NCBI GenBank assembly: GCA_040755035.1
Contig: JBFMBU010000082.1
Coordinates: 25,464 to 89,463 of the forward strand
Length of the DNA stretch: 64,000 nucleotides
Direction of reading: 5' to 3'
Source: Thermodesulfobacteriota bacterium
GTDB taxonomy: Bacteria; Desulfobacterota; RBG-13-43-22
Positions 2,115 through 60,332 of this stretch are shown piece after piece (within the stretch, counting starts at the first letter, position 1; every line of letters begins with the position of its first letter). Under the pieces are notes generated by a model. That model ran no database searches. It was not told the DNA's origin and saw only the letters and a list, made by a program, of their open reading frames with translations. The translations under genes were made by a program, and so were the position numbers.

Positions 2115-3083
2115 TTAATCGGCGTATACGCCGGCTTTTTTAAGGATCGGTCCCCATTTGTCGGTTTCAGCTTTTAAATGTTTGCGCAAGGCCTCCGGAT
2201 TGGCCCGATCATCACCAACCGGTTCGGTGCCCAGATCGGCAAAACGTTGTTTGACCATCGGGTCTTTCAAGGCCACCTGCAAGGCTTTGGTCAACTTGTC
2301 GATGATCGGTTTTGGTGTTCCTTTAGGGGCGTAGAGGGCATGCCAAATGGAAACTTCAAAGCCCTTCAGACCGGCTTCATCCATGGTTGGGACATTGGGA
2401 AGAGAAGGCACCCTTTTTTTAGTAGTGACGCCATAGACCTTGATTTTTCCCGCTCGGATCTGACTGGTAGTATTGGTGGTCTGATCACACATAAAATCGA
2501 CCTGCCCGCCGAGCAAGTCATTCATGGCCGGGCCGGTGCCTTTATAGGGGATCGTGGTCAGATCGGTCCCGATAGCCGTCATGAAGAGGGTACCGCATAA
2601 ATGAGAGGCTGCCCCGAGACCGGCATTGGCCAGATTTACTTTATCTTTATTGGTCTTCACGTAGGCAATCAGTTCCTTTAAATTACCGGCGGGAAAATCT
2701 TTTTTGGCCACAAAGGTCATGGGTACTTCATTTACCAGGCCGATGGGTTCAAAATCGTTGATGGGACTATAGGGGAGCTTACGATAAAGGGCCGGGGCCG
2801 TGGCCATGCCGATATGATGTAAAAACAGGGTATATCCATCCGGGGCCGATTTGGCCGCTCGGTTGGCCCCGACCGTTCCACCGGCGCCGTCAACGTTCTC
2901 GACAATGACCTGAGCGTTTAAGGCCTTGGACATGGGTGCGGCAATTAAACGGGTGACCGTGTCCGTAGGACCGCCGGCAGTAAAGGGGACGATGATCGAG
3001 ATCACCTTGGTCGGATAATCTGCCGCTCCTGCATTAGTGAACAATAAAAGGATACACGCCAGGGCTAAAAAGAACTTTTTCAT
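2115..3083 (-). CDS. tctC: Tripartite tricarboxylate transporter substrate-binding protein TctC (Bug family)
   Basis: 322 aa with a signal peptide. Bug/TctC-like sequence throughout (VISIIVPFTAGGPTDTVTRLIA...). Forms an operon with tctBA. Confidence 0.85.
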   Translation of the reverse strand: MKKFFLALACILLLFTNAGAADYPTKVISIIVPFTAGGPTDTVTRLIAAPMSKALNAQVIVENVDGAGGTVGANRAAKSAPDGYTLFLHHIGMATAPALYRKLPYSPINDFEPIGLVNEVPMTFVAKKDFPAGNLKELIAYVKTNKDKVNLANAGLGAASHLCGTLFMTAIGTDLTTIPYKGTGPAMNDLLGGQVDFMCDQTTNTTSQIRAGKIKVYGVTTKKRVPSLPNVPTMDEAGLKGFEVSIWHALYAPKGTPKPIIDKLTKALQVALKDPMVKQRFADLGTEPVGDDRANPEALRKHLKAETDKWGPILKKAGVYAD

Positions 3084-3397
3084 GGTTTAACCTCTCCTTT
3101 TCATCTTTTAATAAAAAAATAAAACCGGTCGTTTTATTTTTTGGGACATTCTAAAATTTACCGGCCTGGAGTGTCAAGGAGAAAAATGAGGGTTTCCTTT
3201 TTTCCCTTGACCGAGCTCGGCGATTTTTCTATACATTTACCTTTCATTCCATTTATAATAAAAATAATAAGTTTCAAAAATTGGTTTTTTGCCGATTAGA
3301 AAGGGTAAAAAACCGCGCCAACCGGTAATAGCGGAAGGGTCAGCCGACCATTTTCCGGTTGAAAACTCTGAAAAAAGAAAAGACAATGAGGTGGAAA

Positions 3398-4369
3398 ATG
3401 ACAAAGGAAAAATTTGGGATAAAGTATGTGGGAATGGTGACCATTCTATTGTTTTTAGTAACCCTGGTTGCCGGTGAGGTCTGGGCCAGGGCCGGAGGAG
3501 GACGGTCCGGCGGCTTCCGGGGCAGTCGCTCCTTTTCGGCGCCAAGAACCCAGTCCCCGGGGACCTCTCCCTTTCAGCGTAGTGTTCAGCCTCCTCCCGG
3601 GAATATGGCCAATCAACCCTATTCCCAACCCGGCGGAAGTCCCTTTCTGAGGGGTCTGGCCGGCGGGTTAGCCGGGGGCTTCCTGGGAAGTCTGCTGTTT
3701 GGCGGTATGGGCCGGGCTTCAGGAGCCGGTTGGGGATCCGGCGGATCGGGAATAGGATTTTTGGAAATTATCCTGATTTTGGCCGTGGTTTTTTTTCTTT
3801 TCCGGTTTATCCGCAACAGAAAAAAAAACTCCCTTAACCAGAACCCGTATTCCGATTATGCACCCCCTCCCTATCAACAAGCAGGGGCTTTTTCCCCCAA
3901 CGTATCCGCAGGGGATCAGGAGGTGGAAACCGGTATAGCCCACATTCAATCAATGGACCAAACCTTCGATTCCACTGCTTTCAAAGATTGGGTACAGGAT
4001 GTCTTTTTCAAGATCCAAGCCGCCTGGGGAAATCAGGATTTAGGGCCGGTCAGTCCCCTTTTAACCACAGAAATGCAGGAGATTTTTTCCAAGGACCTGG
4101 AAGGGCAGAAAGCGGCCAATCGCATCAACCGACTGGAAAATATCGCTGTCCGTTCAGTAGAGATCACCGAAGCCTGGCAGGAAGAGGGTAATGACTTTAT
4201 CACGGTCCTATTTTACGCCAATCTGGTGGACTACACCCTTGATAAAACCAGCGGCGCCGTACTTTCCGGAAGCAAAACCGATCCGGTCAAATTCAGGGAA
4301 TTTTGGACCTTCTTGCGACCTGTCGGCAAAGGCCCCTGGAAATTAAGCGCCATTCAGCAGGAGAACTGA
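3398..4369 (+). CDS. Tim44-like domain membrane protein
   Basis: N-terminal transmembrane segment, a Gly/Ser/Pro low-complexity linker, a second transmembrane segment, then a C-terminal domain resembling the Tim44-like fold. Start chosen at ATG 3398, which is preceded by GAGGTG; the ORF could also start at 3359 or 3386. Confidence 0.55.
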   Translation: MTKEKFGIKYVGMVTILLFLVTLVAGEVWARAGGGRSGGFRGSRSFSAPRTQSPGTSPFQRSVQPPPGNMANQPYSQPGGSPFLRGLAGGLAGGFLGSLLFGGMGRASGAGWGSGGSGIGFLEIILILAVVFFLFRFIRNRKKNSLNQNPYSDYAPPPYQQAGAFSPNVSAGDQEVETGIAHIQSMDQTFDSTAFKDWVQDVFFKIQAAWGNQDLGPVSPLLTTEMQEIFSKDLEGQKAANRINRLENIAVRSVEITEAWQEEGNDFITVLFYANLVDYTLDKTSGAVLSGSKTDPVKFREFWTFLRPVGKGPWKLSAIQQEN

Positions 4370-4498
4370 TCGTTCATATCCCTCCGCTTATTCAATCAAG
4401 TCCGCTCAGGATTGATGGCGGCGATTGGAAAAATAGGAATAAAAAAGGAGGCTCGTCGAACTGCCGGGCCTCCTTTTGAGTAAAGTAAGGGTTAGGGG

Positions 4499-5029
4499 TT
4501 AAAACCGGGGACCGCCTCCTTGGCCGAACCCCCGTCCAGGGCCTTGCCCAAAACCGCCACCTTGTCCGGGACCGGCGCAGGGACCTTGACCCCGCATCTT
4601 ATGCCGGCCCCTTCCGTAACCCATTCCGCCAGCAAAGGTCCCTATCTGGGCCGCCTGTTCCGGAGTCAAAACTTTTCGCACCTCAAGCCGGGCGTCGGTA
4701 GCCTTGGCCTGCATCTTATCCCGCAGGGCGTTTAATTCCTTCTGCTTGACCAGGATCTTATCCCGATCCGGGCTGGGAGAGGTCCAGAGGGTTCGAAGTT
4801 CCAACCTTTTGGTCTGCATTTCATTGCGCAGGGAAACGGTATCCTTCCAGTGTTTTTCCCGGAGGTCCTCCAGTTTGGTTTTCTGGTCCGGGGTCAGGTT
4901 TAAACGGTCCCCCCAGGCCGGACAATTTGTGTTTTTACCCAGACCATACCCCGGTCCGGCCGCAAAGGCTGTTCCGGTCAGGGCTGCTAAGGCCAATCCA
5001 ACAACACAACTTTTTACAATTTTTTTCAT
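4499..5029 (-). CDS. Periplasmic Spy/CpxP-family (LTxxQ) stress protein
   Basis: Signal peptide, LTPDQ/LTPEQ motifs, a coiled helical hairpin, and a Gly-rich C-terminal tail. Confidence 0.65.
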   Translation of the reverse strand: MKKIVKSCVVGLALAALTGTAFAAGPGYGLGKNTNCPAWGDRLNLTPDQKTKLEDLREKHWKDTVSLRNEMQTKRLELRTLWTSPSPDRDKILVKQKELNALRDKMQAKATDARLEVRKVLTPEQAAQIGTFAGGMGYGRGRHKMRGQGPCAGPGQGGGFGQGPGRGFGQGGGPRF

Positions 5030-14655: not shown

Positions 14656-14960
14656 AGGATCGGGGAGGTTTTCTTTTTGGGGTTGTCCACCCTGAACCTG
14701 GGAGCTTCTTTGCCGGGCAAATTATTTATCTAAACCGAGAGCAGGCCTTCACCGGAGATGGAAACGGGTCGGTCGGCTTTGCCGACCAAAGAGGAGGCTT
14801 CCAAAGGAAGCCGGGCTGTATGCCCTGCCTCGAACATAACTTAGCTGGACTGGCCGGGAGGTCGATAGACCGACCTCAAAGAAAACCCCCCTGCGGGGGC
14901 CGGGATAGGGCGACCAATTACCCTTTGGACAATCCCCAAAAAGAAAACCTCCCCGATCCT
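14656..14960. repeat. 305-bp element bounded by perfect 27-bp inverted repeats, rich in internal GC hairpins
   Basis: Arms aggatcggggaggttttctttttgggg (14656-14682) and ccccaaaaagaaaacctccccgatcct (14934-14960). Internal hairpins near 14771-14787, 14796-14812 and 14886-14899. Confidence 0.7.
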
Positions 14961-18715: not shown

Positions 18716-18850
18716 AAATATTCGGCTTCCCGGGCCTGCTACCTTTTAAACATAAGCGACTTAAAGAGTCAAACAAGAAAAGAGGGAAACCGGGGGGCAT
18801 TAGGCGCTTATGAATAGAATTCTACGCAAATTGGATAGGATTATTAACAG

Positions 18851-18997
18851 TCTCATAAGATGGTCTCGCAAAAAGTCGTCACAGCACGGTATTGTCATTT
18901 CGACCAAAGGGAGAAATCTTGAAATCATTAAAGATTTCTCGTCGCTCCACTCCTCGAAATGACAGAAATTGACTTTTTGCGAGACCGTCTTATGAGA
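18851..18997. repeat. 147-bp nested palindromic MITE-like element (ggtctcgcaaaaagt ... actttttgcgagacc)
   Basis: Outer 26-bp inverted repeats at 18852-18877 and 18971-18996. Inner inverted repeats gtcatttcga/tcgaaatgac and gagaaatctt/aagatttctc. Confidence 0.75.
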
Positions 18998-19025
18998 CCC
19001 TTAATAATTCTAAAAGAGGAATTTA

Positions 19026-45209: not shown

Positions 45210-47687
45210 ATGTTTTTAAAAGGAGTTTTAAGTTTGACCGCCAAAAAAGTACAACGGAAAGAAAAAGAGGAGCCCCGCATCGGGGTCTATGTCTGCCATT
45301 GCGGTTTGAATATCGGCGGGGTGGTGGATTGTGAACAGGTCGCCGGATTTGCGGCAGATTTACCGGGTGTTGTTCTCTCCAAACATAATCTGTACACCTG
45401 CTCGGAACCGGGACAAGACTTGATCAAAAAAGACATTCAAGAACAGCGTTTGAACCGGGTGGTGGTGGCCTCCTGCACCCCCCGTTTGCATGAACCGACC
45501 TTTCGAGCCGCCTGCGAAGCCGCGGGATTAAACCCTTATCTCTTTGAAATGGCCAATATCCGGGAACACTGCTCCTGGGTCCATCTGCACGAAAAGGAAG
45601 CGGCTACGGAAAAGGCCAAGGACCTGGTGCGCATGGCCGTGGCCAGGGCCAGGCTGTTAGCGGCCCAGGAAACCTTTGAAGTCCCCGTGACCCGCAAGGC
45701 CCTGGTCATCGGCGGGGGAGTGGCCGGCATTCAGGCCGCCCTGGACCTGGCCGACAGCGGGTATAAAGTCTATCTGGTGGAAAAAGAACCCAGCATCGGC
45801 GGTCGGATGGCTCAGATCGATAAGACCTTTCCGACCATGGATTGTTCCATATGCATTCTGGCCCCCAAGATGTCCGAAGCCGGAAGGCATCCCAACATCG
45901 AGCTCCTGACCCTGAGTGAGATCGAATTGGTGGAAGGGTATGTGGGGAACTTCACCGTTCAGGTCCGGCAAAAGGCCCGCTATGTTACCGATTCCTGTAC
46001 GGCCTGCGGCGATTGTGCCAGGGTTTGCCCTCAGGTCGCCCCGGATGAATTCAATGCCGGTCTGTCCATGCGCCGGGCCATTTATATGTCCTTTGCCCAG
46101 GCCGTCCCCTCTACCTATCAGATCGACATGGACCTTTGCCTGAATAAGCACGGCATCGTGGCCTGTGACAAATGTTTTCAAGCCTGCCAGCGGCAGTGCG
46201 TGGATTATTCCCAAAAAGATCAAATCCTGAACCTGGAGGTGGGAACCATCATCGTTGCCACCGGCGTGGACGTTTATGATCCCACGCCCTTGACCGAATT
46301 CGGCTACCGCAAATTCCCCAACGTCATCACCAGCCTGGAATTCGAACGTCTGATCAATGCCGGGGGACCGTCGGGAGGGAACCTGATTCGTCCTTCGGAC
46401 CAAAAGATCCCCAAGACCGTGGCCTTCCTGCAGTGTATCGGGTCCCGTTCCAAACGGTCCAATATTTATTGCAGCAATATCTGCTGCATGAATACGATTA
46501 AAGACGCCTTACTGATCAAAGAACACTGGCCGGAGACCAAAATTCTGGTTTTCTATATCGATATTCGGGCCTTTGGAAAAGGTTTCGAGGACCTTTTTCA
46601 GCGGGCCAGACGTGAAGGGGTCTCTTTTATCCGCGGTGTTCCCGGGGAGATCATCGAAGACCCGGAAACCAGAAACCTGACCCTGATCGGCGAGGACACC
46701 CTGCTTTCCCAGCTCTATCGCTATGAAGCGGATATGGCCATCCTTTCCGTAGGCATCGAACCCAGGAAGGACAGCCAGGCTATTCAACGGCTGTTAAATC
46801 TCTCCTGCGCCTCGGACGGTTTTTTTCTGGAGGCTCATCCCAAACTGCGGCCGGTGGACACCCCCACCAGCGGTATTTTTTTAGCCGGCTGCGCCGAAGG
46901 ACCGAAAGACATCAAGGATTCGGTGACCCAGGCCTGCGCCGCCGCTTCCCGGGCCAACATCCTTATGGCCCAGGGGAAGGTCAATGTGGAGGCCATTACC
47001 GCTGTAGTCGATGAGTCCCTCTGCACCGGGTGCGGTATGTGCGTCAAGGTCTGCCCCTATTCGGCCATCCGGCAGGACCCGGAAACCGGAATCGCCCAGG
47101 TGACCCAGGCCTCCTGTGCCGGGTGTGGGACCTGTGTGGCTGAATGCCCCTTTTCGGCCATTACCCAGAGACATTTCACCGACCAGCAGATACTGGCCCA
47201 GATCGACGCCATCACGGAAGAGGCCCCGGAAACCAAAGTAGTGGCCTTCTGCTGCAACTGGTGCTCTTACGCCGGGGCTGATTTTGCCGGGGTCAGCCGT
47301 ATGCAGTATCCGGCCCCGATCCGGATCATACGGACCATGTGCTCGGGACGGATCAGCACCGAATTCATGGAATATGCCTTCCGCCGCGGCGCCGCGGCGG
47401 TCCTGGTTTCCGGGTGTCATATCAATGATTGCCATTATATCAATGCCAACCATCAAACGGAAAAACGGGTCAACCGGGTCTGGAAAAAAATGGAACGCCT
47501 CGGTCTGGATAAAAACCGGCTGCAATTGGCCTGGATCAGCGCCGCCGAAGGCAATATCTTCGCCCGCAAGGTAAAGGAAATGGACGAAATCATCCGTGGG
47601 GTGACGGCCGAGGAAATTGAAAAGACCAAGCAGGCCCTGGTGCCCAAGAAGAAGGGGAAAGAAGAAAGGTTGGGAGAGAAAGAATAA
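45210..47687 (+). CDS. hdrA: Heterodisulfide reductase subunit A-like flavoprotein with C-terminal MvhD-like domain
   Basis: FAD-binding GGGVAGIQAAL. Multiple 4Fe-4S Cys clusters. C-terminal methyl-viologen-reducing hydrogenase delta-like domain (VAFCCNWCSYAGAD...). Confidence 0.85.
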   Translation: MFLKGVLSLTAKKVQRKEKEEPRIGVYVCHCGLNIGGVVDCEQVAGFAADLPGVVLSKHNLYTCSEPGQDLIKKDIQEQRLNRVVVASCTPRLHEPTFRAACEAAGLNPYLFEMANIREHCSWVHLHEKEAATEKAKDLVRMAVARARLLAAQETFEVPVTRKALVIGGGVAGIQAALDLADSGYKVYLVEKEPSIGGRMAQIDKTFPTMDCSICILAPKMSEAGRHPNIELLTLSEIELVEGYVGNFTVQVRQKARYVTDSCTACGDCARVCPQVAPDEFNAGLSMRRAIYMSFAQAVPSTYQIDMDLCLNKHGIVACDKCFQACQRQCVDYSQKDQILNLEVGTIIVATGVDVYDPTPLTEFGYRKFPNVITSLEFERLINAGGPSGGNLIRPSDQKIPKTVAFLQCIGSRSKRSNIYCSNICCMNTIKDALLIKEHWPETKILVFYIDIRAFGKGFEDLFQRARREGVSFIRGVPGEIIEDPETRNLTLIGEDTLLSQLYRYEADMAILSVGIEPRKDSQAIQRLLNLSCASDGFFLEAHPKLRPVDTPTSGIFLAGCAEGPKDIKDSVTQACAAASRANILMAQGKVNVEAITAVVDESLCTGCGMCVKVCPYSAIRQDPETGIAQVTQASCAGCGTCVAECPFSAITQRHFTDQQILAQIDAITEEAPETKVVAFCCNWCSYAGADFAGVSRMQYPAPIRIIRTMCSGRISTEFMEYAFRRGAAAVLVSGCHINDCHYINANHQTEKRVNRVWKKMERLGLDKNRLQLAWISAAEGNIFARKVKEMDEIIRGVTAEEIEKTKQALVPKKKGKEERLGEKE

Positions 47688-47717
47688 CTTCAAACCTTTA
47701 TTGAGAGGCCCCAATTG

Positions 47718-48074
47718 GTCATTCCGGCGGAAGCCGGAATCCAGGAGAAAAAAACAGTGTTTAAAATACCGGTTGTTTATATCCTGGCAAACAAAAAAAA
47801 TGGTACCCTATATACCGGTGTGACTTCAGATCTTGTTAGAAGGATCTGGGAGCACAAACACAATCTCGTAAAAGGATTTACTGAAAGGTATAAAATTCAT
47901 ACCCTTGTTTGGTATGAAGTTCATGATAATATGGAGTCGGCCATTGAGAGGGAAAAAAGGATAAAAGAATGGAAACGGAATTGGAAACTGGAATTGATAG
48001 AGAAAAACAATCCGGAATGGTGTGATTTGTCCGATACAATTATATGACTGGATTCCGGCTTTCGCCGGAATGAC
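47718..48074 (+). mobile_element. GIY-YIG cassette bounded by 27-bp inverted repeats, inserted between hdrA and hdrC
   Basis: The left inverted repeat is 47718-47744 (gtcattccggcggaagccggaatccag). The right inverted repeat is 48048-48074 (ctggattccggctttcgccggaatgac). The cassette starts 31 bp after the hdrA stop codon and ends 49 bp before the hdrC ATG. Confidence 0.6.
47757..48047 (+). CDS. GIY-YIG nuclease family protein (COG2827/UPF0213-like)
   Basis: GTG start. GIY-YIG core (VYILANKKNGTLYTGVTSDLVRRIWEHK). Embedded in a 357-bp cassette bounded by 27-bp inverted repeats. Confidence 0.7.
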   Translation: MFKIPVVYILANKKNGTLYTGVTSDLVRRIWEHKHNLVKGFTERYKIHTLVWYEVHDNMESAIEREKRIKEWKRNWKLELIEKNNPEWCDLSDTII

Positions 48075-48123
48075 GTGCTTTAACGGTTAAAGAGGGTAAA
48101 GGCCTTGTCAGGGAATAAGGGTT

Positions 48124-48591
48124 ATGATCCAAAGCATCTGGGAACTTTTTAATAAAGAAGACCTTTTTGAATGCTACCAGTGCGCCCGTTGCACCGGAAG
48201 CTGTCCGGCGGCCATGGTCATGAAGGGTTACGGCCCGCGGGAGACACTGCTTCGCTGTTTGAATCTGGGCCAGGAGGCGGTTATTACCGACGAAAGGGTC
48301 TGGTACTGCACCACCTGTCATGTCTGTGAGGACCGTTGTCCGCAGGAGATCAATATCTCCGATATGCTGACGGCCATCTTTAATCTGGCCGCCCAACGGG
48401 GCAATCTCCCCGAGAAAATCAAATTCGGGGTGGATCTGATCGCCAAGACCGGCCGAAGTCTCATCGTCAACGAGAAGGTCTTAAAAGACCGGCAGAAACT
48501 ATCCCTGCCAGCCCTGGATCCCTTGGATATCGATGAGCTGGAAGGGATATTTAAAAAAACAGGACTGAATGAAGTGATTGATTTGAGTTAA
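48124..48591 (+). CDS. hdrC: Heterodisulfide reductase subunit C
   Basis: Two 4Fe-4S motifs (CxxCxxCxxxCP). 155 aa. Confidence 0.85.
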   Translation: MIQSIWELFNKEDLFECYQCARCTGSCPAAMVMKGYGPRETLLRCLNLGQEAVITDERVWYCTTCHVCEDRCPQEINISDMLTAIFNLAAQRGNLPEKIKFGVDLIAKTGRSLIVNEKVLKDRQKLSLPALDPLDIDELEGIFKKTGLNEVIDLS

Positions 48592-48706: not shown

Positions 48707-49615
48707 GTGAGTTTCATGAAATTTGCATTTTTTTTAGGATGTGTCATCCCGGTCAAGTATCCGGGATTTGAAAAGGCCACACGGGAAGTCATGCAGGCCC
48801 TGGATATCGAATTGGTGGACCTGCCTTTTTCCTGCTGCCCGGCACCGACCAATATGAAGCTGGCCCATTACGACACCTGGCTGGCCCTGGGGGCCCGCAA
48901 CCTTTGTCTGGCGGAAGAGGCCGGCCTGCCGATCCTGGCCATGTGCAATGGTTGCATTAACACCCTCAAAGAAGTCAATCTGACCTTGAAAGAAGATAGT
49001 CGAAGGCGGGAACAGGTCAACCAGGCCCTGGAAGGAACCGGTCACCGCTTTAAGGGGACCATTGAAGTCAAACACCTCTTGGATGTTTTATATAAGGATA
49101 TCGGACTGGAGCGGATTGCCGAAAAGGTCCGCCGTCCCTTAGAGGGCATCAGGATCGGCTGCCATTACGGCTGTCACCTCTATCGTCCTCCCCGGCTAAT
49201 GTATCCCGACGAGTTGTCTGAAGCGGCCAGTTATGTCCCGGTGAGCATGGACCAGATCCTTGAGGTCCTGGGGGCCCATCCGACCCAGTATTCCAGGAAG
49301 TTCCTCTGTTGCGGATCGGCACTGGGGACCAATATCGACGCCCAGGCGGCCAATGAAATCACCCGGGAAAAACTCCAGCACATGAAAAAACACCGCATCG
49401 AGGCCGTTTCCGTGGCCTGCCCTTCCTGTTTTACCCAATTCGACCGGGGGCAGATGATGCTGGAAAGAAAGTATCATGACGGATTCAACCTGCCGACCCT
49501 TTATATCGCCCAGCTTTTAGGGCTGGCCTTCGGTTTAGAAAAGGCCAATCTGGGGCTGGGAGACCACCGTATCAGCCTCCAGCCTATGTTGGACCGGATC
49601 GCGGGGGCTTCTTGA
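48707..49615 (+). CDS. hdrB: Heterodisulfide reductase subunit B (CCG-domain protein)
   Basis: Two cysteine-rich CCG-type domains (CCP...CNGC; CCG...CPSC). Confidence 0.85.
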   Translation: MSFMKFAFFLGCVIPVKYPGFEKATREVMQALDIELVDLPFSCCPAPTNMKLAHYDTWLALGARNLCLAEEAGLPILAMCNGCINTLKEVNLTLKEDSRRREQVNQALEGTGHRFKGTIEVKHLLDVLYKDIGLERIAEKVRRPLEGIRIGCHYGCHLYRPPRLMYPDELSEAASYVPVSMDQILEVLGAHPTQYSRKFLCCGSALGTNIDAQAANEITREKLQHMKKHRIEAVSVACPSCFTQFDRGQMMLERKYHDGFNLPTLYIAQLLGLAFGLEKANLGLGDHRISLQPMLDRIAGAS

Positions 49616-50361: not shown

Positions 50362-50490
50362 GTCATTCCGGTCGGTCGGTTCCACCGACCTCCATTTTCA
50401 GACCTCCGAAGGAGGACGAGCGAAAGCCGGAATCCAGGAACTTTTCCGAACTTTGAAAAAACCTGGACCCCGGCTTTCGCCGGGGAGACG
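50362..50490. repeat. Non-autonomous MITE related to the GIY-YIG cassette ends
   Basis: Termini gtcattccggtcggtcgg ... ccggctttcgccgggga. Shares a 38-bp core (agacctccgaaggagg.cgagcgaaa..cggaatccag) with the copy at 57443. Confidence 0.65.
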
Positions 50491-50649
50491 GCTTTAAGGG
50501 GTTTGGGTTTTGTTTTTAAGCCCCTTTGAGGGGCTAATATTTTCAAGCCTCCGGATTTGCCGGAGGTATTTGATTTTAAATCCTAAACAGGAATCTGCCA
50601 GCAGAAACAATCCTTCGCCGAACAACGAATGCTCAACGCCGAACGGTCT

Positions 50650-57413: not shown

Positions 57414-57629
57414 TGCGCAAAAAGTTGCCGAACGCCTTGTTTCGTCATTCCGGTCGGTCGGGGCGCCCGATTCCATCGAGCTTTTAAAGAGGCATCCATT
57501 CTGATGCCGATTACCGACCTCCATTATGAGACCTCCGAAGGAGGTCGAGCGAAAATCGGAATCCAGCATTTTAATTAAGTTATGAAATCCCTGGACCCCC
57601 GTTTTCACCGGGGTGACGATTTTTTGCGA
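57414..57629. repeat. Non-autonomous MITE related to the GIY-YIG cassette ends, with outer gcgcaaaaagt/attttttgcgag termini
   Basis: Inner termini gtcattccggtcggtcgg ... caccggggtgacg. Shares the core with 50400-50437. The outer termini resemble those of the 18851 and 60144 elements. Confidence 0.65.
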
Positions 57630-60026: not shown

Positions 60027-60143
60027 TTACACCCATTCTCTGCCGGAAGTTGATTTAGCTTATCCACTCTGCCCCCTACTCCACATGGTAATTAGGGGGG
60101 ATTTATTACCATTCCAAAAAAGATTATACGGTACCACTTAACA

Positions 60144-60326
60144 TGGTTTCGCAAAAAGTACTATTTTGTCATTTCGAGGAGAGAAGCGACGAGAAATCTT
60201 TTCGGTCAATTTCATTGACCCTAACAGGAGATTGGCAAGTCGGTCGGGCCGTTCGACTTGGTCGAACTAAGAGAACCGACCGGTCGAAATGACAACGAAG
60301 GGATTTTTACACTTTTTGCGAGACCA
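60144..60326. repeat. 183-bp variant of the same nested palindromic element
   Basis: Termini tggtttcgcaaaaagta / tacactttttgcgagacca. Inner gtcatttcgagg...ccggtcgaaatgac. Immediately followed by REP copy 6. Confidence 0.7.
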
Positions 60327-60332
60327 TTATTA

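Follow-up and report, generated by a model that had tools for sequence, protein, structure and literature searches.

Between hdrA and hdrC of a redox operon, a 64,000-nt stretch of DNA from an uncultured Thermodesulfobacteriota bacterium (GenBank assembly GCA_040755035.1, contig JBFMBU010000082.1, positions 25,464 to 89,463 of the forward strand; the window in what follows) carries a small cassette with inverted-repeat ends and a gene for a GIY-YIG nuclease, and we wanted to determine what kind of element this cassette is and how it has behaved within the operon. Every copy count and every search of the window covers these 64,000 nt only. Our analysis indicates that the cassette is very probably an SRM-ssn-SRM locus, that is, a gene for an Ssn-family site-specific endonuclease of single-stranded DNA (ssDNA) placed between two inward-facing copies of the hairpin that the enzyme recognises. 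The assignment to Ssn rests on homology, on the catalytic residues, on the flanking SRMs and on an association of gene and hairpin across phyla in which the stems covary.

The reference point for this assignment is the work of Chenal et al. (2025, Nat Commun 16:2388, PMC11893778), who associated the Neisseria repeat NTS (CGTCATTCCCGCGMAVGCGGGAATCYRG), the oriented form of dRS3, and related SRMs with one gene, ssnA. SsnA is a 94-aa single-domain GIY-YIG protein (CDD cd10448, GIY-YIG_unchar_3). An SRM was found nearby in 71% of Ssn homologues and on both sides in 42%, and 81% of the genomes with more than 200 SRMs carried ssn. Purified SsnA from four species bound the forward-strand hairpin as ssDNA only and cut a few nucleotides 5' of the CGTC tag; it was inactive on double-stranded DNA (dsDNA), RNA and the reverse strand, and cleavage survived removal or extension of the loop. 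Deletion of ssnA in N. meningitidis increased transformation with NTS-bearing DNA about five-fold. The same authors described NTS-ssnA-NTS as insertion-sequence-like, compared it with the REP/RAYT systems and suggested domestication as a hypothesis (PMC11893778).

In the window, the hdrA open reading frame (ORF) runs to 47687 and hdrC begins at 48124, which leaves a spacer of 436 bp (47688-48123), as given in an earlier interpretation made from the letters alone (the sequence-only reading). The spacer holds two inverted arms of 27 nt each (47718-47744 and 48048-48074) that are complementary at 26 of 27 positions, so that the 27-bp inverted-repeat ends proposed for a cassette at 47718-48074 were confirmed. 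A search for the 27-mer at up to three mismatches returned just these two window sites, with 0 expected by chance. Each arm forms a hairpin of its own (8-bp stem, 4-nt loop), and the ssDNA fold energies of the arms were -10.3 and -8.8 kcal/mol (z ~ -4.4). The right arm has the layout CGTC-ATTCCGGC-GAAA-GCCGGAAT-CCA; the left arm is built alike except for its GGAA loop and its tag, which reads GGTC since base 47717 is G. The parts of the cassette are as follows, with hairpin scores from a covariance model that was built from 81 gene-flanking hairpins:

47718..47744, plus strand: left SRM, a CGTC-type REP hairpin, GTC ATTCCGGC GGAA GCCGGAAT CCAG (42.2 bits, E 2.5e-10)
47743..47746, plus strand: probable Shine-Dalgarno sequence GGAG, as read from the sequence
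47757..48047, plus strand: putative ssn gene for a 96-aa single-domain GIY-YIG nuclease, GTG start (Pfam, homology, structure model)
48048..48075, minus strand: right SRM hairpin, minus-strand sequence CGTCATTCCGGCGAAAGCCGGAATCCAG (42.5 bits)

The TGA stop of ssn directly adjoins the right hairpin, and the GGAG overlaps the CCAG tail of the left hairpin about 10 nt 5' of the GTG at 47757, which is the likely start of the gene. The mechanically called ORF (110 aa) begins at a TTG within the left hairpin, which gives a 'VIPAEAGIQ' peptide. No direct repeat was found at the cassette borders, where ...ccccaattg precedes the left arm and gtgctttaac... follows the right arm, and no Rfam family was detected anywhere in the window at gathering thresholds. 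Since no promoter-like or terminator-like site was found on the plus strand of the cassette, read-through from the hdr operon is the simplest explanation for the expression of ssn.

The cassette ORF matched Pfam PF01541 alone (E 2e-16, residues 20-91 of the 110-aa ORF), in agreement with the small GIY-YIG nuclease gene noticed earlier, and it is the one GIY-YIG gene of the window. Its 96-aa product is identical to an NCBI protein (P0001) from a Thermodesulfobacteriota metagenome-assembled genome (MAG) and has more than 4,500 homologues, most of them exactly 96 aa long and ~70-80% identical. Compared with the 94-aa SsnA orthologue of N. gonorrhoeae (positions 2995-3279 of locus L094), which was used in place of the N. 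meningitidis protein itself, the window protein showed 61% identity over 92 residues with an E of 2e-42, where the criterion of the Ssn paper was E < 1e-10. The gonococcal orthologue carries Y6, Y17 and E64, precisely the residues mutated by Chenal et al. (2025), and Y8, Y19 and E66 of the window protein align with them; Y8, Y19, R29, H33 and E66 were invariant across 39 homologues.

The AlphaFold (AF2) model consisted of one compact GIY-YIG domain (pLDDT 91) with no extra DNA-binding domain, and the solved folds nearest to it were UPF0213 (1ZG2), Slx1 and the N-terminal domain of UvrC. Slx1 and the small GIY-YIG proteins of the UPF0213/YhbQ type (PDB 1ZG2, 4XLG) have the same fold but are only 20-29% identical, and Slx1, unlike Ssn, is structure-specific on branched dsDNA and needs Slx4; we know of no association with hairpin repeats for either type. 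WD40 matches from the PDB sequence search were rejected as spurious, being built from many weak repeats, and 1ZG2 was the sole real match. The only NCBIfam match, to TIGR01453 (group I intron endonucleases), stayed below threshold (20.3 bits, cut-off 56, 34 residues covered), no defence-system model of PADLOC matched, and the INPHARED phages held no close Ssn, the best match being partial and less than 40% identical. We have filed the cassette protein as a putative Ssn-family member with cognate SRMs; the family, described in 2025, would thus gain one further representative, whose host lineage is an anaerobic one within the Thermodesulfobacteriota. A Smithellaceae homologue (P0044, 74% identical; L096-L103) had an unchanged setting in each of the 24 contigs read, which came from different samples: a gene for a DEAD/Hrq1-like helicase with an MZB domain lies on one side and an RNase_H_2 (PF13482) gene on the other, all on one strand. 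These surroundings may be a functional DNA-processing neighbourhood.

The cassette shares with the described Ssn loci the ~95-aa single-domain GIY-YIG protein with the same catalytic Tyr, Tyr and Glu, the SRM-gene-SRM architecture with CGTC tags outward, and the order of tag, 8-bp stem starting AT, 4-nt loop and CCAG tail. It differs from them in its host, an uncultured Thermodesulfobacteriota MAG, in its position inside the redox operon hdrACB, in its stem, ATTCCGGC in the window versus ATTCCCGC, which is a compensated change, and in the natural loop expansions of 50-95 nt in neighbouring SRMs. The right arm departs from the Neisseria NTS consensus by 2 mismatches, both at compensating stem positions, and is among the 3 window sites that match the published SRM pattern (0.1 expected). 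The covariance model recovered 4 intact SRM copies in the window, namely the two cassette arms and the right halves of two gene-less doublets.

The hairpins also fit a previously defined repeat class. The CGTC-tagged REPs have an unpaired CGTC, TGTC or CCTC tag, an 8-9-bp stem opening with two A-T pairs, a 4-5-nt loop and a CCA tail; they occur mostly as head-to-head dimers, in families of tens to thousands of copies per genome, and Neisseria dRS3 and Rickettsia RPE-6 are among the members (Di Nocera, De Gregorio & Rocco 2013, BMC Genomics 14:522, PMC3733652). The window hairpins matched the CGTC-1 definition point by point, with its unpaired CGTC/TGTC tag, 8-bp stem with A-T as the first two pairs, 4-nt loop and CCA tail. 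Both gene-less doublets of the window fit the placement of these REPs, which are head-to-head dimers between unidirectional or convergent genes. The earlier statement that the cassette ends belong to a very widespread repeat class is thus borne out, and the SRM/NTS repeats are CGTC-tagged REPs. Where the CGTC-REP account differs is that here, and in Chenal et al. (2025), such repeats are the cognate sites of Ssn. The CGTC-REP classification is not cited in the Ssn paper, so the equivalence appears to be unstated in the literature that we searched; making it explicit links two literatures on repeats that had previously been thought to lack a dedicated enzyme. The exact window SRM 27-mer (loop base free) was also present in 25 IMG/VR 'viral' contigs (L106-L130); no ssn homologue was seen in their fetched flanks, and the contigs could represent pieces of host DNA within prophage calls.

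The co-occurrence of gene and hairpin in other genomes was examined in 80 genomic loci with relatives of the window protein, from Desulfobacterales, Dehalococcoidia, SAR202, Alpha-, Beta- and Gammaproteobacteria, Patescibacteria, Bacteroidota, Verrucomicrobiota and other groups. Under a strict hairpin definition, the hairpin flanked ssn on both sides in 39 of the 80 loci and on one side in a further 21. Hairpin density in the 250 nt upstream of the gene was 3.6 per kb (51 forward, 19 reverse), the downstream bin, which spans the gene plus the next 250 nt, was the mirror image (18 forward, 52 reverse), and farther out the density fell to 0-0.5 per kb. This oriented enrichment of at least 10-fold within 250 nt rules out a chance pile-up of REPs beside ssn. 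The stems varied by lineage (ATTCCGGC, ATTCCCGC, ATCCCGTGG, ATGCCAGC, ATGGCCGGG, ATCCTCCGG), with the GTC(A/G)T and CCA flanks constant. Double-sided changes were observed in all 8 stem pairs (129 cells), and the observed covariation score was reached by none of 500 shuffles; as the set had been selected for hairpin formation, the percentage of paired positions is given by construction, which does not hold for the diversity of pair types. Gene-less doublets in the same relative orientation ('> <') were scattered in the flanks of many loci.

Chromosome-sized records of Neisseria, Sinorhizobium, Aeromonas and Shinella carried 1-2 copies of ssn each. Locus L094 (NZ_CP119140.1, 1879281-1885556) comes from a PLSDB 'plasmid' record that is the 2.17-Mb chromosome of N. 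gonorrhoeae, and there the single ssnA orthologue lies inside an array of ~19 SRM/dRS3 copies, of which 12 are upstream of it and 7 downstream. In some loci from Dehalococcoidia, SAR202, Enterousia and Elusimicrobiaceae (L007, L013, L017, L057, L059), 8-13 SRMs are likewise clustered within 1 kb of ssn; these arrays include expanded-loop matches of 80-84 nt and recall the NIMEs of Neisseria or BIMEs.

We then considered the history of the cassette at the hdr site. Its neighbours in the operon are:

45210..47687, plus strand: hdrA, upstream, encoding an HdrA-MvhD fusion of 825 aa (ORF, Pfam)
48124-48591, plus strand: hdrC, downstream (ORF, Pfam)
48707-49615, plus strand: hdrB, downstream (ORF, Pfam)

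HdrA-MvhD, HdrC and HdrB are encoded by intact ORFs with the expected Pfam domains, which agrees with the earlier view that the operon is split without being inactivated; exact-protein look-ups with HdrC and HdrA found no record. For a comparison of spacers, which the sequence-only reading had proposed, we retrieved 13 metagenomic loci whose HdrC is closely related (79-92% identity). The site turned over among these relatives, and four classes of spacer were distinguished. The spacer was bare in L087 (19 nt), and L084, truncated upstream so that its length is not measurable, has the same sequence before hdrC. Unrelated palindromes of the 'cgtatatcg/cgatatacg' type occupied 71-197 nt in L081, L083, L085 and L088, and the truncated L090 has similar ones before hdrC. 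Gene-less SRM doublets with expanded loops filled the spacers of L086 (338 nt) and L089 (311 nt), in neither of which was an ssn remnant found. The full cassette was present in L082, in a 436-nt spacer with a 30-nt left flank and a 50-nt right flank. It was also present in L104/L105 (protein P0004) in the same hdrA-ssn-hdrC-hdrB-serA synteny, so that at least three lineages (the window, L082 and L104/L105) carry it at the same position. The hdrA-hdrC spacer is a hot spot for palindromic inserts.

In comparisons among the three lineages with the cassette, the synonymous divergence (dS) of ssn was 1.30, 0.90 and 0.64, and that of hdrC for the same pairs was 1.85, 1.83 and 0.94; the closest pair was the same for both genes, and the hdrC values of the two pairs that involve the window are too close to each other and too near saturation to rank. 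The dN/dS ratio was 0.11-0.15 for ssn and ~0.03 for hdrC. The hairpin arms were identical at 26-27 of 27 positions in the three lineages, and the non-coding flanks were 43-63% identical. Since ssn dS rises with that of hdrC, dN/dS is low and the hdr position is shared, the cassette appears to be an old insertion that has been inherited vertically since the three lineages split, with ssn under purifying selection; the hairpins have been conserved or homogenised far past the neutral expectation. The recent insertion proposed by the sequence-only reading is therefore not supported. That reading had itself held that the cassette at the orthologous hdr position across distant relatives, with no other copies, would argue against recent mobility, and this is largely what was found, with at least three lineages and one gene copy in the window. 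Signs of recent movement, such as near-identical copies in different contexts or presence and absence between close strains, were not found: the window has one gene copy, P0044 has one context in 24 contigs, and the lineages seen to differ in the presence of the cassette were all ~7-13% diverged in their HdrA/HdrC proteins.

In a neighbour-joining tree of the HdrA C-terminus and HdrC (334 residues, weak; L104 absent) the window and L082 were not sisters, which would imply several losses or repeated gains of the cassette. The empty spacer has 19 nt versus ~79 nt of total flanks at the filled site, and as these flanks are randomised, the junction between filled and empty states cannot be reconstructed. 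The site offers a natural time series of a long-retained cassette, doublets and nothing at one intergenic position, which bears on the distinction between domesticated and mobile Ssn loci.

The gene-less derivatives that had been placed at 50362-50490 and 57443-57617 are real and have the same ends, but the core that they share is ~56 nt and not 38 bp. They consist of the following parts:

50362..50437, plus strand: expanded-loop SRM, left arm of gene-less doublet A (GTCATTCCGG, ~50 nt, then CGAAAGCCGGAATCCAG)
50463..50490, minus strand: right SRM of doublet A, a stem variant (CGTCTCCCCGGCGAAAGCCGGGGTCCAG; covariance-model match 50458-50496, 39.3 bits, E 1.8e-9)
57444..57566, plus strand: expanded-loop SRM, left arm of gene-less doublet B (ends and core as in doublet A, with a further ~45-nt insert)
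57591..57618, minus strand: right SRM of doublet B (CGTCACCCCGGTGAAAACGGGGGTCCAG; covariance-model match 57586-57624, 26.6 bits, E 1.2e-5)

The left halves of both doublets start with GTCATTCCGG and end with CGGAATCCAG, with a loop grown by ~50 nt in A and ~95 nt in B, and are followed by a ~24-nt spacer and an intact variant right hairpin with a CCCCGG stem. The ~50-nt insert in A carries TCGGTCGG..CCGACC and ACCTCCGAAGGAGG hairpins, and both doublets fold into long hairpins. Doublet A sits in the convergent region between hdrB and a serA-like gene, doublet B (57443-57618) between two minus-strand ORFs. Since the stems and flanks of the expanded-loop SRMs are intact, they should remain substrates of Ssn, and natural loops of 50-95 nt agree with the tolerance of the enzyme for loop extension in vitro, a point of relevance to the use of Ssn proteins as programmable ssDNA cutters. 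Most of the hdr relatives (L083, L085, L086 and L088, ~4180-4750) likewise showed an SRM doublet in the convergent intergenic region after hdrB, roughly at the position of doublet A, which may also be old.

Taken as an SRM-ssn-SRM locus, the cassette would work as follows. The gene would be expressed through read-through of the hdr operon, and the targets of its product would be its own border SRMs, the expanded-loop doublets at 50.4 and 57.5 kb and further genomic copies. Because the arms face inward, the predicted cuts lie just outside the two cassette ends and on opposite strands, with the top strand cut near 47714 and the bottom strand near 48078. In vivo, Ssn would cut SRM-bearing ssDNA arising from transformation or uptake, conjugation, replication or repair and would in this way modulate recombination in the vicinity of SRMs; a role in maintaining the SRM population, like that of RAYT for REPINs, is also possible. 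That it also spreads SRMs, as RAYT spreads REPINs, lies for us somewhere between unlikely and possible. Any physiological role in this Thermodesulfobacteriota MAG would be a guess. Some observations weigh against the identification of the cassette as an Ssn locus. The left arm fails the published SRM pattern, at the first base only (GGTC, not HGTC), SRMs were counted within 64 kb only (4 intact and 2 expanded-loop copies), 61% identity to the SsnA orthologue leaves the specificity of the window protein unfixed, and the only demonstrated role of Ssn is to limit natural transformation in Neisseria (PMC11893778).

The same architecture could be read as an autonomous IS-like or MITE-type transposon, in which the GIY-YIG enzyme excises and reinserts the cassette and the gene-less doublets and the hdr copy is a transposition event. 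Terminal inverted repeats around a nuclease gene, 27 nt long and 96% complementary, would be expected of such an element, as would gene-less '> <' doublets of one orientation in the window and in many genomes, a site that is polymorphic among relatives (19-nt empty spacer, cassette, doublets) and cuts predicted just outside both ends. The IS-like architecture was remarked by the authors of the Ssn paper, although transposition is unreported for Ssn (PMC11893778), and a MITE family mobilised by the GIY-YIG enzyme, as suggested by the sequence-only reading, is a hypothesis already raised in the literature. Yet no target-site duplication was seen at the cassette borders, and the gene is present once in the window and once or twice per chromosome in the Neisseria, Sinorhizobium, Aeromonas and Shinella records. 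The cassette has also co-diverged with hdrC in three lineages to near-saturated dS, as an old insertion would, and the context of P0044 is constant in 24 of 24 contigs. GIY-YIG enzymes are hydrolytic nucleases, to our knowledge without strand-transfer activity or a covalent intermediate, and no transposase domain was found. A free-standing gene for a GIY-YIG homing endonuclease, homing into hairpin doublets through double-strand breaks, would draw on a classic homing-endonuclease fold, on the weak match to TIGR01453 and on the coexistence of 'filled' and 'empty' doublets. That match, however, fell short of its cut-off (20 versus 56 bits), the 96-aa protein consists of the catalytic domain alone and lacks a DNA-binding domain, the spacers of empty doublets have no similarity to the inner ends of the cassette, the copy at the hdr site appears old and selectively maintained, and the characterised homologues do not cut dsDNA (PMC11893778). 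The lack of a visible target-site duplication, the single-copy gene, the old insertion, the lack of a DNA-binding domain, the lack of dsDNA activity in homologues and the hydrolytic chemistry thus speak against both readings, and we consider the transposon unlikely and homing hardly credible. It is improbable, too, that the hairpins act chiefly as RNA, as stabilisers or processing sites in the polycistronic hdr mRNA, with the nuclease gene incidental. The cassette is co-oriented with the operon and has no terminator-like site on the plus strand, and REPs generally lie downstream of genes (also PMC3733652); the gene upstream was co-oriented in 41 of 59 loci, and only 6 of 59 were in divergent intergenic regions. 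But an RNA role leaves the tight, oriented association of hairpin and ssn in many unrelated contexts unexplained, relatives with a 19-nt spacer indicate that the operon does not need the hairpins, there were almost no G-U pairs in 648 stem cells, though Watson-Crick pairs were required by the selection, and SsnA does not bind RNA (PMC11893778).

A further reading overlaps with the favoured SRM-ssn-SRM locus and does not exclude it: Ssn as a domesticated analogue of the REPtron, a host enzyme with one gene copy and vertical inheritance that gives rise to, or maintains, dispersed SRM doublets, the doublets being the replicating units. In the REP/REPIN-RAYT systems (Nunvar 2010; Bertels & Rainey 2011; Ton-Hoang 2012) a single-copy vertical nuclease gene likewise lies between inverted hairpin repeats that are recognised as ssDNA, and inverted doublets and arrays of the repeat are dispersed. 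RAYT, however, is an HUH/Y1 transposase with a covalent intermediate that pairs with GTAG-tagged REPs, whereas Ssn is a hydrolytic GIY-YIG enzyme that pairs with CGTC-tagged ones and is not known to mobilise anything. Pfam found no HUH/Y1 (IS200/IS605 TnpA-like) domain in the window protein, GIY-YIG only, and the likeness to RAYT is one of architecture and not of membership. The flanking of single-copy ssn by its own repeats, the predominance of head-to-head doublets (here and in PMC3733652), the long vertical persistence under purifying selection, stems that differ between lineages while the copies flanking one gene match each other, the large SRM arrays around ssn in the Neisseria, Dehalococcoidia and SAR202 loci, and the presence of ssn in most SRM-rich genomes (the 81% of PMC11893778) all fit this reading. 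On the other side, no replication mechanism is known for a hydrolytic nuclease, and SRMs also occur without nearby ssn, for example in the 25 IMG/VR contigs; we regard the reading as possible but tentative. A bolder form of it is unlikely. In it, the cassette and the gene-less doublets, those with expanded loops included, would replicate as one system, and a hydrolytic GIY-YIG nuclease of ssDNA would spread CGTC-type REPs with the help of host repair or replication, by a transposition-like mechanism without a transposase; the hdrA-hdrC spacer would be a preferred landing site, and Ssn the 'missing' mobilising enzyme of the CGTC REP superfamily. If Ssn does spread these repeats, a long-standing question on the origin of REP families without a transposase would be answered.

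Two longer nested palindromes that the sequence-only reading had related to the cassette, at 18851-18997 and 60144-60326, were confirmed as structures but belong to other palindrome families. The TCGCAAAAAGT motif had 7 matches in the window, with 1.7 expected. An outer inverted repeat, (G)TCTCGCAAAAAGT ... ACTTTTTGCGAGAC, was seen around differing inner palindromes at 18836-19012, 60143-60327 and 57415-57629, with arms of up to 42 nt (90% complementary) at 18836; it encloses a GTCATTTCGA...TCGAAATGAC palindrome at two of the sites and the SRM doublet at 57.5 kb, and the whole looks like a composite, nested family of palindromic elements. A hairpin module, TCGGTCGG...CCGACC(TC), occupies the expanded loops of the SRM left arms (50372-50390, 57454-57526) and was also seen within the 60144 palindrome (60240-60281), in L089 (~300-420) and alone at 14.77 kb (14766-14885), beside other small hairpins; the pattern had 3 exact matches versus 0.01 expected. 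By analogy with IS1397, which targets REP loops, the module might be a small element with hairpin loops as its target, or else a second, longer version of the repeat. In L070 (Patescibacteria) and L074 (Verrucomicrobia), ssn is flanked by another type of hairpin with tandem G-A mismatches, ATTGCGAGCGTAGCGAAGCAATCC and GTCATCCCGAGCGGAGCGAGGGACC. These hairpins resemble the GTCATTTCGAG...CGAGAAATC hairpins within the 60144 element of the window, which may be an SRM family belonging to another Ssn.

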